Assembly: GCA_040218735.1 (NCBI GenBank)
Contig: JAVJQW010000012.1
Location: forward strand, 224,001-288,000
Direction of reading: 5' to 3'
Length of the DNA stretch: 64,000 nucleotides
Source: Deltaproteobacteria bacterium
Lineage (GTDB): Bacteria > Myxococcota > Kuafuiibacteriia > Kuafuiibacteriales > Kuafuiibacteriaceae
The notes below the pieces were generated by a model. The model ran no database searches, was not told the DNA's origin, and worked only from the letters and a program-made list of their open reading frames with translations. A program made the position numbers and the translations under genes. Positions 1 through 26,170 of the stretch are shown in pieces; the stretch's first letter is position 1; every line of letters begins with the position of its first letter.

Positions 1-713
1 ATCGTCTGCTCGATGACGCGCGGCCCGGCGAACCCGACGAGCGCGTTCGGCTCCGCGACGATCACGTCCCCGAGGAGCGCGAAGCTCGCCGCGACGCCGC
101 CGGTGGTCGGGTCGGTGAGCACGCTGATGTACGGCATCTTCGTCTCGCGGAAGCGGCTGATCGCGGCGGACGTCTTCGCCATCTGCATCAGCGACAGGAT
201 GCCCTCCTGCATGCGCGCGCCGCCGGACGAGGAGAAGACGACGACCGGGCAGCGCTCCTCGAGGCCGATCTCGAACGCGAGCGTCACCTTCTCGCCGACG
301 ACGCTCCCCATCGAGCCGCCCATGAACTTGAACTCGAAGGATCCGGCGACGACCTTGCGGCCCTTCAGGCGGCCGGTCGCGAGGACGAACGCCTCGGCCT
401 CACCGCTGCTCTTGCGCGCGGACTTCACGCGGTCGAGGTAGTTCTTGCTGTCCGCGAAGCCGAGCGGATCGGCGGGCGCGAGGTCCGGTGCGATCTCGGT
501 GATCGAGTCGGAGTCGAGCAGCTGCATCAGGCGCGTGCGCGCGTTGATGCGGAAGTGTTTGCCGCAAGAGGGGCACGTCCCGAGCGCGGCGGCGACGTCC
601 TCCGCGAGGGAGGAGGTGCCGCAGTCGTCGCACAGGCGCCACAACCCGGTCGGGACGGAGGCCTTGGTCTCCTCCTTCACCTTGGGGGCCGCCATTCGCT
701 TGAACCACGTCAC
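1..713 (-). CDS. accD: Acetyl-CoA carboxylase carboxyltransferase beta subunit (3' end runs off the window)
   Basis: Not in the ORF track because it is truncated. Manual translation from GTG 713 gives MTWFKR...GLWRLCDDCG...GTCPSCGKHFRINAR (Zn finger), FMGGSMGSVVGEK, SSSGGARMQEG, LTDPTTGGVAASFA, GFAGPRVIEQT. Confidence 0.97.
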   Translation of the reverse strand, partial: MTWFKRMAAPKVKEETKASVPTGLWRLCDDCGTSSLAEDVAAALGTCPSCGKHFRINARTRLMQLLDSDSITEIAPDLAPADPLGFADSKNYLDRVKSARKSSGEAEAFVLATGRLKGRKVVAGSFEFKFMGGSMGSVVGEKVTLAFEIGLEERCPVVVFSSSGGARMQEGILSLMQMAKTSAAISRFRETKMPYISVLTDPTTGGVAASFALLGDVIVAEPNALVGFAGPRVIEQT

Positions 714-752
714 GGGGGACGGTGTTCCAACGAGCACCGGGGTTTTGGCAAG

Positions 753-3233
753 TCACTTCGACGTCGCGATGCGGACGCCGTCCCAGTCCGGCGGCGGCGG
801 GTCGGCTTGGTACTCCATGCACCACGCGATGTAGAGGTCCGAGGCCTTGTCGCCGTCGATGCCCGAGAGCGCGCGGGCGCGGGTGAAGGACGCGATGGCG
901 TCGTCCCACTGCTGCTCGCGGAAGGCGGCGAGGCCTTCGTGGAACGCGGTGACGAACGGGAGGCGCGCGGCGGTGTCGCGTTTCGCGCCGACGAGCTCGA
1001 AGATGCGCACCGGTTCGAACTTGCCCTTCACGCGGAGCGAGCCGAGCTCGCGGCAGAGCATGTCGGCCTCGACGAGGGCCTTGGTGTCCTCGGAGATCAG
1101 GATCTCGACGCCGTACTCCTTCGTCTGCCCTTCGAGGCGCGCGCCCAGGTTCACGCGATCGCCGAGCGCCGTGTACGCGAAGTGATCCGCGCTGCCCATG
1201 TTGCCGATCGTCATCGGCCCGCTCGAAAGACCGATGCCGATCGCGATGTGCGGGAGGCCCTCTTCGAGGAAGCGCTCGTTGAGTTGTTCGACGACCTTCA
1301 GCATCTGCAGCGACGCCTTGCACGCGAGCAGCGCGTGGTTGGACTGTTCGATCGGCGCGCCCCAGAACGCCATCACCGCGTCGCCGATGTACTTGTCGAG
1401 CGTGCCCTCGAACTCGAAGACGATGTCCGTCATTGGCGTCATGTACTCGTTGAGGAGCTTGCCGAGCTCCTCGGGCGTGAGCTGCTCGGAGATCGTGGTG
1501 AAGCCGCGGATGTCGGAGAACAGGACGGTCGCTTCGTAACGGTTGCCGCCGAGCTTGAGGTACACCTCCGGGTTGCCGAGGACGTGCTCCATCACGCGCG
1601 GCGCGAGGTAACGTCCGAAGGCCTGCTTCGTCTTGCGGCGCTCGCGTTGCTCGACGAAGAAGCTCCACATCGCGACGGCCAACATCGTGACGAAGATGAG
1701 GAGGACCGGGAGCACCGTGTACACGAGCACCCCCTCCCGGAAGAAGACGAGCTGGTCGGCGACGATCCAGAACGCGGCGAGCACGAACGCCGTGACGACC
1801 TGCCCGATCACTTGGAAGCGCGTCATCACCAGGCCGGTGATCAGGCCAATGAGGAGGAACAGCGCGATCTCGATCGCGATCGCGTGCAGCGGGCGCGCGA
1901 GGTGGCGGCCGTCGAGGATGTTCTGCGCGAGCGTCGCGTGGATGTAGACCCCGGGGACCGCGCGCTCGAGCGGCGTGACACGTTGGTCGTGCGTGCCGAT
2001 CGCGGTGGCCGCGACGAAGACGACGCGATCCTTCAGCTGGGCGGCGGGGACCTTGCCGTCGACGATGTCGGAGATGGAGTAGATCGGCATCTGCTCCGCC
2101 GCGAAGCGCCCGTACCAGTCGAGCGAAGTCGTGGCGGCGAGCTCGGTGTCGATGACGAGATCACCGACGCGCACGGCCTGAGGGGAGAGGTCTTCGGGGG
2201 TGGAGACGAGCTCGATCGGCGCGTCGACGGCGACCTGCACGGCCTTCAGCGCGAGCGTCGGGAGCACCCAACCGCTCCCCTTTACGGTGCTGACGAGCGG
2301 GATGCGACGGTTGACGCCGTCCTCGTCCGGCGACGCGTTGATGGTGGCGAAGTGTGGCGTTGCCTTCGCGAGGACGTCGGTCGGCGCGAGGACGCCGAAG
2401 TACTTGCGGTAGACGCCGCGGTCGAAGAGGTCGCCGGCTTCGTAGATCTGTCCGACGCCGTCGCCGGACTCGATCAGCTCGTTGATCGTGGAGGTGCGCA
2501 CGACGTGGAGGGCGCGGTCGTGATCCTCCGGGCTGCGTTCGAGGAGCTCCGCTTCGGTCTTGGAGTAGTTGACGACGCCGAGGACGACGCGCCCACTCTT
2601 GGCGATCGCCTTCGCGAAGTCGCGATCGGGGTTGGCGTCGGAGATCTGCCCTTCGAGTGTGGTGCTGAAGCGTTCGATCGCGTGGCGGACCTCGCGGTCC
2701 TTGGCGATCGGTTTGTCGAGACGATCGGCGATGCGGCGCGCGGGTGCGGAGCGTCGGAGCTTGCGCAAGTCACGTTGCGCGCGCTCGAGCGCGAGCGCGT
2801 TGTCTTCGAGGGTCTTCGACGCCCCCTTCAGGCCCGTGACCTTCGCCTCTTCGACGAGCTTTTGGATCGCGACCTGCCCGTCGTCGACCTGCGGCTGCTC
2901 GAACGTCATGTCGAACGCGACCGAGCCGACGCCGGCCTCGGTGAGGCGGTTGACGAGATCGGCGTGCACGGTGCGCGACCAGGGCGGGGGCCCGAAGCGC
3001 GCGATCGACTTCTCGTCGAGCGCGGCGATCGCGACGCGCCAGGCGTCCGGTTCTCGCTGCCCGCGCGCGGCGAACTTCACGTCGACGCCGAGGAGCTCGA
3101 GCCGCTGTAGGAAGTTCGGGGGTCGCCCGGAGAAGACGCGGAGCTCGTTGGCGATGTGGTACACGACCGCCACCAGCGCGATGAACATCGTCACGCGCAG
3201 CCCACGCTGCGCGATCCACCTCAATACGGCCAT
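753..3233 (-). CDS. CHASE2-domain adenylate/guanylate cyclase (class III)
   Basis: CHASE2 motifs (DEKSI...PWSR, GVYIHA), three TM helices, cyclase motifs LFSDIRGFT, DKYIGDAVMAFWGAP, YTALGDRVNLGARLE, C-terminal DWDGV. Confidence 0.93.
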   Translation of the reverse strand: MAVLRWIAQRGLRVTMFIALVAVVYHIANELRVFSGRPPNFLQRLELLGVDVKFAARGQREPDAWRVAIAALDEKSIARFGPPPWSRTVHADLVNRLTEAGVGSVAFDMTFEQPQVDDGQVAIQKLVEEAKVTGLKGASKTLEDNALALERAQRDLRKLRRSAPARRIADRLDKPIAKDREVRHAIERFSTTLEGQISDANPDRDFAKAIAKSGRVVLGVVNYSKTEAELLERSPEDHDRALHVVRTSTINELIESGDGVGQIYEAGDLFDRGVYRKYFGVLAPTDVLAKATPHFATINASPDEDGVNRRIPLVSTVKGSGWVLPTLALKAVQVAVDAPIELVSTPEDLSPQAVRVGDLVIDTELAATTSLDWYGRFAAEQMPIYSISDIVDGKVPAAQLKDRVVFVAATAIGTHDQRVTPLERAVPGVYIHATLAQNILDGRHLARPLHAIAIEIALFLLIGLITGLVMTRFQVIGQVVTAFVLAAFWIVADQLVFFREGVLVYTVLPVLLIFVTMLAVAMWSFFVEQRERRKTKQAFGRYLAPRVMEHVLGNPEVYLKLGGNRYEATVLFSDIRGFTTISEQLTPEELGKLLNEYMTPMTDIVFEFEGTLDKYIGDAVMAFWGAPIEQSNHALLACKASLQMLKVVEQLNERFLEEGLPHIAIGIGLSSGPMTIGNMGSADHFAYTALGDRVNLGARLEGQTKEYGVEILISEDTKALVEADMLCRELGSLRVKGKFEPVRIFELVGAKRDTAARLPFVTAFHEGLAAFREQQWDDAIASFTRARALSGIDGDKASDLYIAWCMEYQADPPPPDWDGVRIATSK

Positions 3234-19860: not shown

Positions 19861-22683
19861 CTACTGCTCGTAGCAGCCGCGATCCACGTTCGGGACCGTA
19901 CGCGTCACGCCGTCGAGTGAGACCCCGAGCGACAGCTCGGTCCACACCGTCGCGGGGTCCACGCCGGAGTCGCGGGCCGGGGCGATGGGCGTCAGGTGAC
20001 TGTCGTTCGGACCGCTGAAGAGCATGTCGTCGTTCACGACCCCGCCGACCTCTTCGAGGCCGTCGAGGTCGTACGTGCCGGACGCCGCCGTGAAGTCACC
20101 GAATACGGTGCCAAAACCTCGGTGATGCACCGCGTAGGCGCCGAAGCTCATCGGCGGGTCGAGCGCGAGCACGCCCGTGTCGTTCTGACTGCGGCGCTGC
20201 GCCCGGAACAGCGCCGTCGTCGTCGCCGTCGAGCTGGCCTCGACGATCGTGTTGACGAACCGGGCCTGGTCGACGTTGGCGATCTCGAACCCGGACACGG
20301 GGTGGTGCAGCGGCGGCGCGCCCTGGAGCCTGCAAGTCAGGTTGACGATGGCCGCGGTCACCGCGGGGTACTCGGAGCTGCTCGGGTTCCCTCCGGCGAC
20401 GCGCGCGCAGGTGCTCCAAGCGCCGCGTACCAGGACGTCCTGAACGATGACCCCCTGGCCGACGACGAAGCCCCAGAACAGGCCGCGGTTGGCGTCGTTG
20501 TCCGTTCGGATCTCGACCTGGCGAACGACGTGATGAGCCGGCAGGTCCATCCAGGCCCGGACACCCTCGACGAAGATCCCCGCCTCACCGACGCGCTGGT
20601 TTGCGTTCGCCACCACGGTGAGGTTGCTGACCTGCATCGGCGGCGCCGCGTCGGTCGTCAGCGCAATGACCGCGCGGTGGGAGGTCCACGCGCCGTTCTG
20701 CCGCAGCCAGACGTCTTCGTCGCGGCCCTCGAGGACGATCTCGTCCGCGGAGCCGCCCACGCCGACGATGTCGATCGGCCACGACACGACGACGTTGCCG
20801 GCGTAGGTCCCCGGCTCGATCTCGAGTCGCCCTCCGGGCCACAGGCTCCACGCCGCACGCTGGATCTCGTTGTCGTCCGCGGTCGTGAAGTCACACGCTG
20901 CGCAGGTACTCGGCCCGACACGAGCGACGGTGCGTCGCGGTCCGTCGTGGTCGCTGCGGTTCTGGAACGCGCCGGGCAGCACCCGGGTCCTCCCGTCGAT
21001 CGGGACGCCATCGAAGCTGACCCCGACCGCAGGGACGAGCACGCTGGCGGGCGGAGGCGTCGCGTCGGCGAAGAAGCGCGGGTCCAGCGGCGAGTCGATG
21101 TCCGCTCCGAGGGTGTTGTCGACGACGCGGTTGCTTGCATCGAACTCGTCGAGCCCACGCACGATGGCCGCCGGCGTCCCCTCGTGGACGTTGCCGGCGA
21201 CGGTCAGGCTCGACGTCGCGGTGCTGCCCACGATCAACGAGGTCGTTGCGCCGGACATCGTGACGAAGACGTTGTTGGCCACCGTGAGCCCCTGCGTCCC
21301 CGCCGCGGCGATCGTCGCGTCGTGACTCTGGTAGCTGACGTACGTGTTGTTGATGAGCCGGGAACGGTGCGCGAAGGACAGATCGCCGATGCCCTCCCAG
21401 TGACCGAAGATCCACGAGTTGGTGAGGTCGGTGTCCTCACTCAGACCCACCGCGAACTGAATGCTGTTGGCGCCGAACACCTCCGGGCGAATCGCGGCGA
21501 GGATCATTCGATCGATCTCGTGGCGACCGGTGCCGTCCTCGGCGACCTCTTCCGTCCAGGTGTCGATCAACTGATCGCAGGAGCCGGCAGACACGATCGA
21601 GAAGCCCTCCACGCGCACGCCGTCGCCGAGGAGGCGTACGCCACGAGCGTTCTGGCAACGCAGGTTGACGTCCTGGGGGCTGCGTCCCGCCGCCGCGCCG
21701 ATCCACGTGAGGCCCGGGAGCTGGATCCCTCCGGCCGGTGACTCGAAGTAGGACGGACCGTCGAGGTCGTCGTACAGGATCAAGTGATCGTACGGCTGCG
21801 CGGCCTGGGCGGCCTCGGCGACGGCGAGCTCGCCGACGAAGGTGCACACGGAGGACATCATGTTCTGCGGCGTGAGGTGCGGACAGGTCGCGTTGTCCGG
21901 GCCGACATAGACCGGCCGGAACAGCCGAAACGCCACGCGGACCTCGGCCGGGTCGAGCGCGCCCGCCGTAATCGCGACCGTCGCGGAGTACACACCCTCG
22001 GTGAGGGGCGCGGTGTCGACCGTGAGCGTGAGGGTGTGGTGGTCGTCGCCCGCGTCCACGAAGTCCGCCGTCATCCAGGGCTCGGTCGACGCGGAGAGCT
22101 CGGACGTGGCGCCGGGGTAGTCGACGTCGACCTCGAAGGTCAGCTCGGTGCCGCGATCCACCCACGGACGATCGAAGCTCGCCGGGCTCACGAGGATGCC
22201 GGGCGGGCGGCCCCCGTCGCGAACGCCGCCGTCGCGGGGCTCCTCTCCGCCGTCGCGGACACCAGCGTCGCGCGTGCCGCCGTCCCGCTCCTCGGCGGCG
22301 CCGAGGACGACCTCCAACGTGTTGCAGGCGTCGACCGAGCCGACGACGCTGGCCGTCCCGCGCGCGAGGAGCACGCCCGAGGCCTGCGTCGTGTCGTAGG
22401 CGGCAACGGTGAGCGTGAGGGGGTAGCCGGCCGAGGTCGGCGCGGGGTCGAAGGTCACCGCGAAGCTCGTCGAGTCACCTTCGAGCATCGCGACGTCGAA
22501 CACCCGGCGGTAAGTGTCGTCGTCGACCTCGAGTGTGGCTTCGAGCGAGCGCGTTCGTGTGGCGAGCGCGGCGTCGTCGATCCGGATCGTCGCGATCGCC
22601 CCGGGTGGTGCGTCGGAGCACGGCTCGCCGCCGGAGCACGCGAACAAGACGCCGCAGACCCATACCGAGACAGACCGACGCAC
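19861..22683 (-). CDS. Large lipoprotein with Ig-like and duplicated beta-helix-like modules
   Basis: Lipobox VLFAC, RDGG-repeat linker, INNT/ANNV beta-helix repeats, two modules ending GVSFDG...PGAFQ and GVSLDG...DRGCYEQ. Confidence 0.75.
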   Translation of the reverse strand: MRRSVSVWVCGVLFACSGGEPCSDAPPGAIATIRIDDAALATRTRSLEATLEVDDDTYRRVFDVAMLEGDSTSFAVTFDPAPTSAGYPLTLTVAAYDTTQASGVLLARGTASVVGSVDACNTLEVVLGAAEERDGGTRDAGVRDGGEEPRDGGVRDGGRPPGILVSPASFDRPWVDRGTELTFEVDVDYPGATSELSASTEPWMTADFVDAGDDHHTLTLTVDTAPLTEGVYSATVAITAGALDPAEVRVAFRLFRPVYVGPDNATCPHLTPQNMMSSVCTFVGELAVAEAAQAAQPYDHLILYDDLDGPSYFESPAGGIQLPGLTWIGAAAGRSPQDVNLRCQNARGVRLLGDGVRVEGFSIVSAGSCDQLIDTWTEEVAEDGTGRHEIDRMILAAIRPEVFGANSIQFAVGLSEDTDLTNSWIFGHWEGIGDLSFAHRSRLINNTYVSYQSHDATIAAAGTQGLTVANNVFVTMSGATTSLIVGSTATSSLTVAGNVHEGTPAAIVRGLDEFDASNRVVDNTLGADIDSPLDPRFFADATPPPASVLVPAVGVSFDGVPIDGRTRVLPGAFQNRSDHDGPRRTVARVGPSTCAACDFTTADDNEIQRAAWSLWPGGRLEIEPGTYAGNVVVSWPIDIVGVGGSADEIVLEGRDEDVWLRQNGAWTSHRAVIALTTDAAPPMQVSNLTVVANANQRVGEAGIFVEGVRAWMDLPAHHVVRQVEIRTDNDANRGLFWGFVVGQGVIVQDVLVRGAWSTCARVAGGNPSSSEYPAVTAAIVNLTCRLQGAPPLHHPVSGFEIANVDQARFVNTIVEASSTATTTALFRAQRRSQNDTGVLALDPPMSFGAYAVHHRGFGTVFGDFTAASGTYDLDGLEEVGGVVNDDMLFSGPNDSHLTPIAPARDSGVDPATVWTELSLGVSLDGVTRTVPNVDRGCYEQ

Positions 22684-22742
22684 GGCTCAGAGTGTGCCAG
22701 GCACCGAGGACGGGATCGACTCTTGCGCAGTCGGGCTCCCCT

Positions 22743-22852
22743 GGTGCACCGTCTCGGTCCTCGACCGAAAGGAGGCCGTACCATGTCTGCATCTCATCGC
22801 ACCGTCCCGACGCGCCTCTCTTCGGAGCGCGTCTCCCTCTGACCAAGGAGAC
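22743..22852 (+). promoter_or_regulatory. Candidate translational attenuator (alternative hairpins)
   Basis: GACGCGC (22809-15)/GCGCGTC (22827-33) hairpin with a cUUCGg loop competes with GTCTCC (22831-36)/GGAGAC (22847-52), which buries the downstream SD. Confidence 0.6.
22783..22842 (+). CDS. Putative leader peptide MSASHRTVPTRLSSERVSL (19 aa)
   Basis: SD AAAGGAGG (22768-22775) 7 nt before the ATG; TGA ends 2 nt before the SD of the rbfA-like gene. Confidence 0.6.
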   Translation: MSASHRTVPTRLSSERVSL

Positions 22853-22855
22853 ATC

Positions 22856-23224
22856 ATGGGCAATTCGCGTCGGCGGCGGCAGATGCCGTCGCCGTTCGCT
22901 TCGGATCCACTCGCCGACGAGCGAGGTTTCGACAAACGCAAGCTCCGCCAGCTGTGCCGGCAGGTCGAACGTGCGCTGACGTGTGCGCTCGACGACGTCG
23001 GGCTCTCGCACCTGGCGCTCACCGCCGTGCTCCCGTGGCCGAACTCGAGTCGGCTGCTGGTGGCGGTGCAGCCGACCGAGGACGGTGAGATCGATCGCGA
23101 TGCGATCCTCGACGAGCTGCGCGCGGCAAAGAGTGAGCTGAGGATGGTGGTCGCCGAGGCGATTCACCGGAAGCGAACGCCGGAGCTGTGTTTCGAGATC
23201 CTGTTGGATCCGAGCGAGGCATGA
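22856..23224 (+). CDS. Ribosome-binding factor A (RbfA)-like protein, divergent paralog
   Basis: ATG 22856 with SD AAGGAG; RKLRQLCRQVERAL...LRAAKSELRMVVAEAIHRKRTPELCF matches the RbfA C-terminal R-x-x-P-x-L-x-F pattern. Confidence 0.75.
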   Translation: MGNSRRRRQMPSPFASDPLADERGFDKRKLRQLCRQVERALTCALDDVGLSHLALTAVLPWPNSSRLLVAVQPTEDGEIDRDAILDELRAAKSELRMVVAEAIHRKRTPELCFEILLDPSEA

Positions 23225-23227
23225 ACC

Positions 23228-23264
23228 GAGCGGGGCGTCCCTGACGGGGGCGCCCCGCTCTTTT
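23228..23264 (+). terminator. Rho-independent terminator
   Basis: GAGCGGGGCGTCCC-TGAC-GGGGGCGCCCCGCTC followed by TTTT, right after the rbfA-like stop. Confidence 0.85.
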
Positions 23265-23343
23265 AGTTGTCGGCCAATTGGCTCACGCCGTCGAAGGCGC
23301 GCCGGCAAGGACACCCTGGTCGCGGCGTAGTAACCAGTCGCCC

Positions 23344-24948
23344 GTGGATCACGTCTTCCTCCGCACCGCGCAAGCCGCGAACCAGATTCCGCAAGATCTC
23401 CCCGAGGACGCTGAGCGTCGGCGGCGGGACGAACGACAACGCTGCGCCGAGCACGACTGCGACCTCGAACCCGTCGTCATCACCACCTACGGCGACCTCG
23501 CTGACCCCGCGGTGTGGCGCGCACGACCGCTCGCCCACGACGGGTGGAAGTGCCCGGTCGGTGATCACCTCGTGCTCGGCGCGATCCTGTCGCCGGAGCA
23601 GATCACCGCGTTGTCCGACGCAGGCGGCCGCGCCGCGCAGGCCGGCGACCTCGACGCCGCCGAGTACAACTTCCGGCGCATCGTCAGCGCGTGGCCCGGG
23701 TTCGCAAGTGGGCACTCGAACCTCGGCGCGGTGTACCTCGACCGCGTCGGCGCCGCGCAGCGCGCGGGTGAGGAGTTCCGACCGCTCCTCGACGTCGCGA
23801 TCCGCGAGCTGAGCCGCGCGCTCGACTGCGATCCGCCGGCGGGCGCGCAGACCCGCGTGATGCTCGGGCGCATCCAGGCGCGGCTCGGGCAGATCGCGGA
23901 GGCCTACGCGACGCTGAACCCCATCTTCGACGACCCGGACGCACCGCGGGCGTTCATCGACATGGCGCACGAGCTGGTGGCCTCGCTCCCGCCGGCGCCG
24001 GGCCCTCGCTTCGAACACCAAGACGTCGTGCTCACGCTCCCCGACGGCTGGCGCGCCGTGGACCCCGGCGGTCTGTCAGCGATGTTCGAGGGCCCCGACC
24101 ACGAGATGGTGAACGTCGCGCTCATGCCGAGCCCAGCGTGCAGCGAGGCGCACCTCGAGCACATGATGACGTTCCATCAGCAGGGCCTGCAGAAGAACTA
24201 CCCGCAGGTGCACCCCGAGCCCGCGCGGCGTTCGGATCGACCGGCGTACCTGTGCGCGAATCGCGTCTATCACGTGGACGGTGACGGGAAGCCGTGGACC
24301 GTCACCGCGCGGTACGCGATCTGCCGGTCGGCGAACCTGCAGGCGGGCATGACGTACCCGGCGGTGCAGATCGTCTACTACGGATCGAGCTGGGGTCCGT
24401 CGGCCGCGGTGATCGAAGCGATCGAGAACGCGCAGCTCTTCGGGCGGGTGGCGGCGGTGGTCGAGGCCATGCAACCCCCGGTGGCTTCACTCGAAGAGGC
24501 GATCGAGCGCGCAGAGCTCGGCGCGAGTCGCGCGGCGATCGAATCACACTGGCCCCGCGACACGCAGTGGACCTGGGACGACGCCAAGCAGACCTTGAGC
24601 GGGCGCCCCGAACCCATCGCGCCGTTCAGTTTGACCTACGAGCTCCCCGACGATCGCCTGGCCGCGATTCGCATCCTGATCCGCGCGCCGGGGGACTGGA
24701 GCACGATGGAGCTCCTCGAGGAGCACCTCCGGTATCAGCTCCCGAGCTTCACGTTTCTTTCGGTGCGCGATCCGTGGTCCCTGGATTCGGCGCGAGGGCG
24801 CCTCGAAGGCAAAGGCAACCCACGTTTCATGATGGGCGTCCCGATCGCAGGGACGAAGGACGGTACCCAGGTCAGCGGGAAGGCGTTTGCGTTCAACGTC
24901 GAGGGTCGGCAGCACTACGGGTTCGAGCTCATCTGGCGACCGCGCTGA
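23344..24948 (+). CDS. Hypothetical TPR-containing protein with a possible N-terminal metal-binding motif (start uncertain, 23278 or 23344)
   Basis: TPR-like GDLDAAEYNFRRIVSAWPGFASGHSNLGAVY; CAEHDC...WKCPVGDH. Confidence 0.65.
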   Translation: MDHVFLRTAQAANQIPQDLPEDAERRRRDERQRCAEHDCDLEPVVITTYGDLADPAVWRARPLAHDGWKCPVGDHLVLGAILSPEQITALSDAGGRAAQAGDLDAAEYNFRRIVSAWPGFASGHSNLGAVYLDRVGAAQRAGEEFRPLLDVAIRELSRALDCDPPAGAQTRVMLGRIQARLGQIAEAYATLNPIFDDPDAPRAFIDMAHELVASLPPAPGPRFEHQDVVLTLPDGWRAVDPGGLSAMFEGPDHEMVNVALMPSPACSEAHLEHMMTFHQQGLQKNYPQVHPEPARRSDRPAYLCANRVYHVDGDGKPWTVTARYAICRSANLQAGMTYPAVQIVYYGSSWGPSAAVIEAIENAQLFGRVAAVVEAMQPPVASLEEAIERAELGASRAAIESHWPRDTQWTWDDAKQTLSGRPEPIAPFSLTYELPDDRLAAIRILIRAPGDWSTMELLEEHLRYQLPSFTFLSVRDPWSLDSARGRLEGKGNPRFMMGVPIAGTKDGTQVSGKAFAFNVEGRQHYGFELIWRPR

Positions 24949-24958
24949 CCCTTCGGAC

Positions 24959-26047
<1,089 letters not shown>

Positions 26048-26170
26048 GTCGCCCCCCATAACGCGCGCGTAGGACGACGTCACGAACGACGGGTCAGGCG
26101 AACGACGCACGGACGAAGGCCCCCGGCCGATTGTCGAAGTGAAAGACAACCGGCTACTTCGTACGACAGC

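Follow-up and report, generated by a model that had tools for sequence, protein, structure and literature searches.

What controls an RbfA-like gene that stands outside the usual rbfA context? The question is raised by a locus in a 64,000-nt stretch of DNA from a Deltaproteobacteria bacterium of the Myxococcota (GenBank assembly GCA_040218735.1, contig JAVJQW010000012.1, positions 224,001 to 288,000; hereafter the window), where a short upstream open reading frame (uORF) with its own Shine-Dalgarno sequence (SD) precedes a gene for a protein resembling the ribosome factor RbfA. An earlier sequence-only reading took this leader for a leader-peptide translational attenuator controlling a stand-alone RbfA-like gene. 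All the elements that it listed (the SD, the 19-codon uORF, the hairpin, the anti-SD pairing GTCTCC/GGAGAC and the terminator) are in place (Table 1), and its overall interpretation is partly supported by our analysis. Comparison with homologs supports the conservation of the uORF, two competing helices (A:B and B:SD2, described below), the RbfA fold and a linkage to rtcB. The leader is probably a uORF-dependent translational attenuator of an RtcB-associated RbfA-like factor, conserved across the family.

We scored a locus as carrying a uORF when AGGAG, GGAGG or GGGAG lay 4-10 nt before an ATG that opens a frame of 12-24 codons. Among 82 de-duplicated loci with at least 330 nt of upstream sequence, 57 passed this strict test, compared to one of the 82 sequences when reverse-complemented and 14 of 1140 segments taken from elsewhere in these loci, or about 1% in controls. 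Thus, the uORF noticed in the window is conserved in the family. Its length peaked at 17-18 codons (35 of the 57 uORFs, 18 being the commonest). For the loci found in genomes, most upstream regions contained a strong SD followed by a short frame starting with ATG or GTG, and five of eight shared a related N-terminus (MSA.. or MSV..). The uORF of locus L006, which is from the same genus as the window, differs from that of the window by an in-frame 3-nt indel and by third-position changes.

Features of the frame were counted in a "clean" set of 59 leaders in which the duplex between the uORF's SD (SD1) and the 16S rRNA 3′ end was -8 kcal/mol or lower and the uORF had 15-21 codons. One false member, L067, was later dropped, and two near-duplicates were excluded from some of the subcounts. 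All three stop codons are used by the 58 uORFs (TAG in 27, TGA in 17 and TAA in 14). A motif within the uORF, box A, could be located in 48 leaders, with no match in the other 10 of the 58; in 42 of the 48, it begins in phase 2 relative to the ATG. Its distance from the ATG is 26, 29, 32 or 35 nt, so indels come in threes, and in 32 of the 48 leaders the uORF stop is 22 nt from box A.

The typical leader of the family consists, in order, of SD1, the ATG, the uORF with box A (TCGAGCCTC, codons 11-13), the stop codon, a GGCCCG/CGGGCC hairpin, box B (AGGCTCC.. or AGGCTCTCAC), a variable hairpin, the SD of the RbfA-like gene (SD2) and the main start. The median gap between the uORF stop and the main start is 104 nt. 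SD1 is conserved among the homologs and is stronger than SD2, with mean duplex energies of -10.8 vs -6.2 kcal/mol in a set that was preselected for SD1 at -8 kcal/mol or lower.

Pairing was examined in a MAFFT alignment of 32 hand-picked members of the 59 clean leaders, each about 170-210 nt long; the window's own clade, long leaders and near-duplicates were left out. RNAalifold predicted zero consensus pairs on this 32-row alignment, and three hand-written helices were tested afterwards. For A:B, in which box A pairs with box B around the inner hairpin, 83.3% of the cells were paired (inner hairpin included), compared to 21.7-60.2% when the 3′ partner was slid along the alignment. This helix contained 20 double-change cells, and 0 of 500 shuffles scored as high. 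For B:SD2, in which box B pairs with the SD of the main gene, 65.2% of the cells were paired vs 33.9-46.7% after sliding, and none of 500 shuffles attained its covariation score of 0.323. At pair 161:261, 19 rows have CG and six have UA; at pair 162:260, 15 rows have CG and eight have UA. The helix takes different forms in different groups (CTCC/GGAG; CTCTCAC/GTGAGAG; GAGCTCCC/GGGAGCTC). Thus, both stems covary, a point that the sequence-only reading had named for checking. Since A:B and B:SD2 share alignment columns 157-160, which are four bases of B, the helices compete for box B.

The third helix, SD1:A, was paired in 65.9% of the cells, above its slid controls. In a swap test with 56 leaders, cognate partners paired better than non-cognate partners for B:SD2, A:B and SD1:A (permutation p<=0.0005 each, values that overstate independence because the loci are related), and negative-control pairings gave no signal (p 0.69 and 0.41). 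The first codons of the uORF are often ATG-CTT-GC or ATG-TCT-G (alignment columns 25-32), codon 2 being CTT in 15 of 58. This nucleotide conservation just after the uORF start is accounted for neither by the tested helices nor by the peptide.

A covariance model that runs from SD1 to box B was built from 26 of the 32 rows, after six poorly aligned rows were dropped. The model matches 46 loci at E<1e-3, of which 20 were non-seed (three of these are exact duplicates of seed rows). Ten further loci, that of the window among them, matched weakly, with E 0.04-0.23, each upstream of its gene and on the correct strand. An Rfam scan of 12 loci, including that of the window, gave 0 matches at E<=1. We rejected transcription attenuation as the conserved mechanism. 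Since a terminator-like signal, scored loosely as a hairpin with a T run, occurs in only 8 of 56 leaders, and the T run is mostly inside the loop, control appears to be translational rather than transcriptional.

The two competing pairings suggest a switch. Box B paired with A would leave SD2 free, and box B paired with SD2 would mask it; the position of a ribosome on the uORF would decide whether box A is available. In the resting leader, B would mask SD2 while A may be sequestered by SD1. A ribosome detained at the start or on the first few codons would cover SD1, leaving A free to capture B, and SD2 would open. Induction would therefore be by impaired translation, as in erm leaders. In a typical leader, a ribosome that passes over A or terminates would leave SD2 closed. 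Ribosome-dependent switching and its direction are what we infer from the leaders. Constrained folding of 54 leaders, in which we followed the unpaired probability of the SD2 core, gave 0.257 for free RNA. A ribosome placed over SD1 and the early codons raised this value to 0.340 (increase at 22 loci, decrease at 8; Wilcoxon p 0.002); it was 0.242 when the ribosome covered box A and 0.251 when it stood at the stop. The predicted effect is modest; its direction fits a four-segment, erm-like scheme.

Several observations weigh against an attenuator of this kind. The strict uORF test was failed by 25 of the 82 loci; some of these have GTG or TTG starts or weaker four-base SDs, and some have nothing. 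For SD1:A, covariation was not found (136 of 500 shuffles scored as high), and we keep this pairing as a possibility only. The alignments are hand-picked subsets (32 of 59 leaders, then 26 of 32) whose variable parts are misaligned by MAFFT. SD2 is predicted to open only slightly (from 0.26 to 0.34), the loci are related, and the p-values overstate the case. Translation of the uORF is itself something that we infer from its sequence features. Finally, constraint on the peptide is weak: in 28 pairs, 40, 43 and 53 differences fall at the first, second and third codon positions, codon changes are synonymous in 36 cases and non-synonymous in 66, and no arrest motif could be named across the compared uORFs. 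The reading frame is kept and the peptide sequence is not, as expected of a regulatory uORF.

These same data bear on the proposal that a protein or ligand binds the leader as a structured RNA (autoregulation by the RbfA-like protein or RtcB would be an example), with the frame incidental, or that the uORF encodes a functional micropeptide. Conserved helices do exist, and a bound RNA would make do without translation of the uORF. However, SD spacing, start, ORF length and the distance of the stop from box A are kept, all three stops are used and the phase of box A is constant, features that an untranslated RNA is not expected to keep. The codon-position differences and the excess of non-synonymous changes count against a micropeptide, and the 12 scanned loci matched no Rfam family. 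We regard both forms of this proposal as highly improbable.

The poorly conserved peptide would also suit a homeostat of translation capacity, which works with the opposite logic. Here, frequent translation of the uORF would keep A occupied, leaving B on SD2 and the gene off. When few ribosomes initiate on the uORF, for instance because of immature 30S subunits or subunits without an intact anti-SD, A:B would form and the weaker SD2 would open, with no need for a stalling peptide. The competition between A:B and B:SD2 supports such a device, as does the much greater strength of SD1 over SD2 (in leaders selected for a strong SD1), and in the models a ribosome over box A or at the stop leaves SD2 unopened. 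However, the free leader is predicted to keep SD2 mostly paired, so mere failure to translate the uORF would not open SD2 in the models, and the main gene itself still needs ribosomes. We consider the homeostat unlikely and favor induction by ribosomes held near the uORF start.

How well does the window's own leader fit the attenuator? The covariance model places positions 22768-22839 at 20.3 bits (E 0.04 in 315 kb; 0.0013 in 10 kb), with SD1, the ATG, box A and box B in place and the 39-position inner segment cut to 4 nt. Seven further loci from the window's clade have the partner of SD2 downstream of the uORF, not inside it, and L006 keeps the GTCTCC/GGAGAC pair at a different spacing. By sequence comparison, the window leader is a shortened homolog from which about 35 nt, comprising the ancestral uORF end, its stop codon and the inner hairpin, were lost. 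Since this deletion would have removed the ancestral stop, the window uORF continues across box B and ends 13 nt upstream of the main ATG.

Further points against an attenuator concern the window. Its leader is atypical, being the only one of 56 in which the gap between the uORF stop and the main start is 20 nt or less; in the remaining 55 leaders with a measured gap, the uORF ends at least 58 nt before the main start. The window's SD2 is predicted to be half open in free RNA (0.51). Moreover, the covariance model gives the leader a score of only 20.3 bits, and a search of the whole genome with it at E<=1 gave no match, the window's own leader included. Since the model misses even this leader genome-wide, it cannot tell if the leader precedes other genes in the genome.

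With a ribosome at the uORF stop, constrained folding opens the window's SD2 fully (1.00). A terminating ribosome would melt B:SD2 and could re-initiate, so the logic in the window may be coupling rather than classical attenuation. In the extreme, the window leader would be a relic that has lost any conditional switch, its uORF doing no more than coupling translation to the RbfA-like gene through termination and re-initiation 13 nt upstream. The 13-nt gap, unique among the 56 leaders, the fully open SD2, the loss of most of the inner segment and the absence of rtcB downstream in the window all point that way. But SD1, box A, box B and the GTCTCC/GGAGAC pair are all retained; the leader is unchanged in all three of the four close-strain runs that cover it; and ribosome progress could still be gated by the A:B hairpin (-14.9 kcal/mol) within the uORF. 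A mere relic is, in our judgment, distinctly unlikely.

Taken by itself, the single window sequence is weak evidence, hardly above chance, and the homologs make the case. SD1 forms a duplex of -11.6 kcal/mol with the 16S 3′ end. The 7-bp hairpin GACGCGC (22809-22815)/GCGCGTC (22827-22833) has a z-score of -3.1, equaled by 2 of 200 shuffles, and GTCTCC (22831-22836)/GGAGAC (22847-22852) has an energy of -8.4 kcal/mol and a z-score of -1.6, equaled by 12 of 200 shuffles. GGAGGC (22771-22776) is complementary to GCCTCT (22814-22819), a possible SD1:box A pairing (-15.6 kcal/mol, z -2.0). The leader as a whole (131 nt) folds no better than shuffled sequences (z -0.05). Contigs from four DNA sequencing runs of close strains showed 0 differences at 22755-22860; the coding region has 7 variable sites, and two more lie upstream. 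One of these two is T>G at 22754 in one close strain, in the stem of the small hairpin just before SD1, and the region upstream of SD1 is not conserved in L006. This hairpin, for which the sequence-only reading had proposed alternative folds of the uORF's SD, is thus present in the window but not conserved.

Table 1. Features of the leader and the RbfA-like gene, in window positions
Feature	Positions	Strand	Remarks
Small hairpin	22754..22768	+	TCGGTC (22754-22759)/GACCGA (22763-22768), just upstream of SD1; doubtful as part of the element
SD1, strong SD of the uORF	22768..22775	+	AAAGGAGG; 7 nt before the uORF ATG; segment 1
uORF	22783..22842	+	ATG at 22783, 19 codons, TGA at 22840-22842; frame differs from that of the main gene
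Box A	22809..22819	+	Segment 2; within the uORF, codons 10-13; 5′ arm of the hairpin; counterpart of family box TCGAGCCTC
Box B	22827..22836	+	Segment 3; GCGCGTC pairs with box A; overlapping GTCTCC is the anti-SD of the main gene; inside the uORF in the window
SD2, SD of the RbfA-like gene	22845..22852	+	AAGGAGAC; segment 4; GGAGAC (22847-22852) complementary to GTCTCC
RbfA-like gene	22856..23224	+	ATG at 22856, 122 aa plus stop
Intrinsic terminator	23228..23266	+	15-bp stem (23228-23260), then a T run

The frame of the RbfA-like gene is open from 22514. We rejected an in-frame N-terminal extension, since both SD2 and the conservation of the N-terminus place the start at 22856. A sigma-70-like promoter was looked for in 22500-23500 and not found.

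We characterized the protein that the leader would control. Pfam RBFA (PF02033) matches residues 31-114 of the window protein with 23.6 bits, below the cut-off of 34.7, and NCBIfam TIGR00082 scores 13.4 bits, below its cut-off of 51.15. A precomputed PF02033 match is present on some homologs, and a profile of 27 homologs searched against the PDB found RbfA chains only (E 0.21-0.48). An AlphaFold2 model made on the 27-homolog alignment (predicted local distance difference test score [pLDDT] 81.7) has the order alpha-beta-beta-alpha-beta (H27-47, E53-60, E66-73, H81-102, E110-115). In a Foldseek search of the PDB with this model, the top 15 matches were all bacterial or mitochondrial RbfA, the best being 2dyj_A (template modeling score by target 0.78, root-mean-square deviation 2.1). 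Thus, the window protein is predicted to have the RbfA fold (type-II KH-like), as the sequence-only reading had supposed, and its profile scores fall short of membership in the RbfA families.

The protein is not the genome's canonical RbfA. A canonical rbfA (103.5 bits) lies on contig C70, after the genes for IF-2 (infB) and DUF503, confirming the expectation of a second copy, and canonical copies (87-106 bits) were also present in all five of the other paralog-carrying genomes that were tested. The window gene is outside the infB-rbfA(-truB) context, flanked by a divergent 940-aa ORF and a gene for a protein with tetratricopeptide repeats (TPRs), and has its own terminator. Compared to canonical RbfA (PF02033; PDB 2dyj, 1jos, 7afq and 8byv), the family shares the KH-like fold, and the C-terminal motif region is colinear. 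Unlike canonical RbfA, it has motifs of its own (RQLC-Q-VE and IHRKRTPEL) and a basic N-terminal tail, and its genes lie outside the infB context and coexist with a canonical copy. The invariant residues of the family (C34, Q36, R105-K106-R107 and P109 in the window protein) fall in motifs that are absent from canonical RbfA.

A search of a large protein index found 29 relatives. Among genomes of the order, 11 of 20 (the window genome included) had an RbfA-like match, as did 17 of 401 sampled genomes of the phylum. A metagenome scan yielded 99 confirmed loci, of which 80 were kept, and a contig scan with the single window protein as query yielded 3. When 1.84 billion representatives were searched with a profile, 1703 50%-identity representatives matched at E<=1e-10 and 2901 at the looser limit of E<=0.001. 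Both the source names and the Atlas clusters indicate an origin in Myxococcota and Planctomycetota.

Clustering of neighboring ORFs revealed a conserved gene downstream of the RbfA-like gene, and five of five tested products were RtcB (Pfam E 1e-67 to 1e-129). We then used a profile of RtcB proteins on the 76 loci with at least 400 nt of downstream sequence. In 45 of these, rtcB is directly downstream, starting within a few bases of the RbfA-like stop and often overlapping it, and in six more it lies 0.8-1.2 kb downstream. Among the 50 loci in which both flanks are long enough, 24 have the uORF and rtcB, eight the uORF only, 10 rtcB only and eight neither. No rtcB is adjacent in the window or in its closest relatives (L005-L011 and L014). 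The description of the gene as stand-alone thus holds for the window but not for the family, and, judged by its relatives, the stand-alone gene is a derived state in which the window copy lost rtcB.

Of the six loci with a more distant rtcB, three that were tested have an ORF of about 250 aa separating the two genes (L058:2809-3555, L075:1683-2444 and L083:1009-1770). No Pfam match to it was found at E<=0.001, and it may be a third operon member in one subgroup. In L013, also one of the six, an insertion sequence (IS) transposase (DDE_3 with helix-turn-helix domains; 273-1370, minus strand) lies between the two genes, one way in which the pair can separate.

The window genome has two rtcB genes, both on other contigs. 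One of their products is 58-65% identical to RtcBs that are linked to RbfA-like genes elsewhere, and its gene is at L117, on contig C66 of the window genome. There, an RtcR gene (sigma-54 activator; 3-1316, minus strand) is divergent from rtcB (1417-2634, plus strand), and TGGCAC-N5-CTGCT before this rtcB reads as a sigma-54-like promoter.

We modeled the complex of the RbfA-like protein and RtcB from L012, a genome of the window's family, using alignments of our own and not the window's protein. The interaction prediction score from aligned errors (ipSAE) was 0.64 (runs 0.49, 0.64 and 0.64), compared to 0.16 for the best control; of 80 solved complexes, 58 attained that mark, as did 2 of 110 mismatched pairs. 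The runs agree in at least 65% of contacts, and partner pLDDT was at least 71. As a prediction, the model supports binding of RtcB by the RbfA-like protein. In the predicted interface, RtcB contacts helix 1 just after the C/Q motif, beside the RKR motif.

Since the family is normally encoded directly upstream of rtcB, its function points to RtcB-linked repair of RNA or ribosomes, not to plain 30S maturation. RbfA binds 16S rRNA in the region of the 3′ minor domain and the anti-SD. A tentative possibility is that the RbfA-like protein docks on the 30S subunit as a partner of RtcB and brings the ligase to damaged 16S rRNA, with the leader as damage sensor: ribosomes stalled on the uORF, or not clearing it, would free A, unmask SD2 and induce the repair pair. 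If so, the leader, the adaptor and RtcB would form a self-contained sense-and-repair circuit for the small subunit that is widespread in Myxococcota and Planctomycetota. In the window genome, sensor and adaptor would be uncoupled from rtcB, and rtcB would be under RtcR control.

Leader-peptide attenuation is known mainly from antibiotic-resistance and amino-acid operons. In leaders of the erm and cat/cmlA type, a short uORF has its own SD, the position of the ribosome selects the fold, and the downstream SD is masked. By its sequence, the family leader has the corresponding parts: a conserved uORF with its own SD, and mutually exclusive pairings, one of which would mask the downstream SD, with control that is translational rather than terminator-based. 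It differs from erm and cat leaders in three ways. Segment 1 is the uORF's own SD and start region instead of an internal part of the uORF, a conserved arrest peptide cannot be seen, and the regulated gene encodes an RbfA-like ribosome factor, usually together with RtcB, rather than a methylase or acetyltransferase.

The Rtc system responds to damage of the translation apparatus. The family resembles the PrfH-RtcB2 and RtcR-RtcBA repair operons, in which RtcB is reported to be co-encoded with a ribosome-directed partner (PMC7790460, PMC9223846). It differs from them in that the partner has an RbfA fold and is not a release-factor homolog or cyclase, and in having a uORF leader in place of RtcR and sigma-54. 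The window genome retains a separate RtcR-RtcB pair. A loose parallel may be drawn with the WhiB7/WblC antibiotic stress regulon, for which two papers describe a uORF that senses translation stress and list rbfA of M. abscessus as WhiB7-dependent (2.63-fold) (PMC10727445, PMC7157823). There, the uORF controls a transcription factor by transcription attenuation and rbfA is the canonical gene, whereas here the uORF directly precedes an RbfA-like gene.

Our literature search for an RbfA leader or uORF, or for an RbfA-RtcB operon, found none; a 2016 survey of RNA-repair neighborhoods (Burroughs and Aravind, Nucleic Acids Research [NAR]) may already list the partner. The matches to "RbfA" with "leader peptide" were unrelated, PMC2965389 being concerned with bacterial interspersed mosaic element (BIME) repeats. 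The leader would thus place an attenuator-type device before a ribosome-factor paralog in a family of about 1700 sequence clusters, outside Rfam. The link to RtcB provides testable ideas on how bacterial RtcB finds damaged rRNA and on how repair could be switched on by the state of translation without RtcR. In addition, these leaders, in which two covarying helices compete around a uORF, provide clean comparative material for the study of ribosome sensing by leaders outside model organisms.

The other genes around the locus in the window are unrelated to RNA repair on the downstream side. The neighbor at 23278-24948 (plus strand) encodes a 556-aa protein with weak TPR matches, and the next gene, at 24959-26149 (minus strand), encodes a 396-aa PD40 beta-propeller protein. 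Upstream, the divergent 940-aa ORF occupies 19861-22683 (minus strand) and matches no Pfam family at E<=1; the intergenic region 22684-22767 is common to this ORF and the leader.

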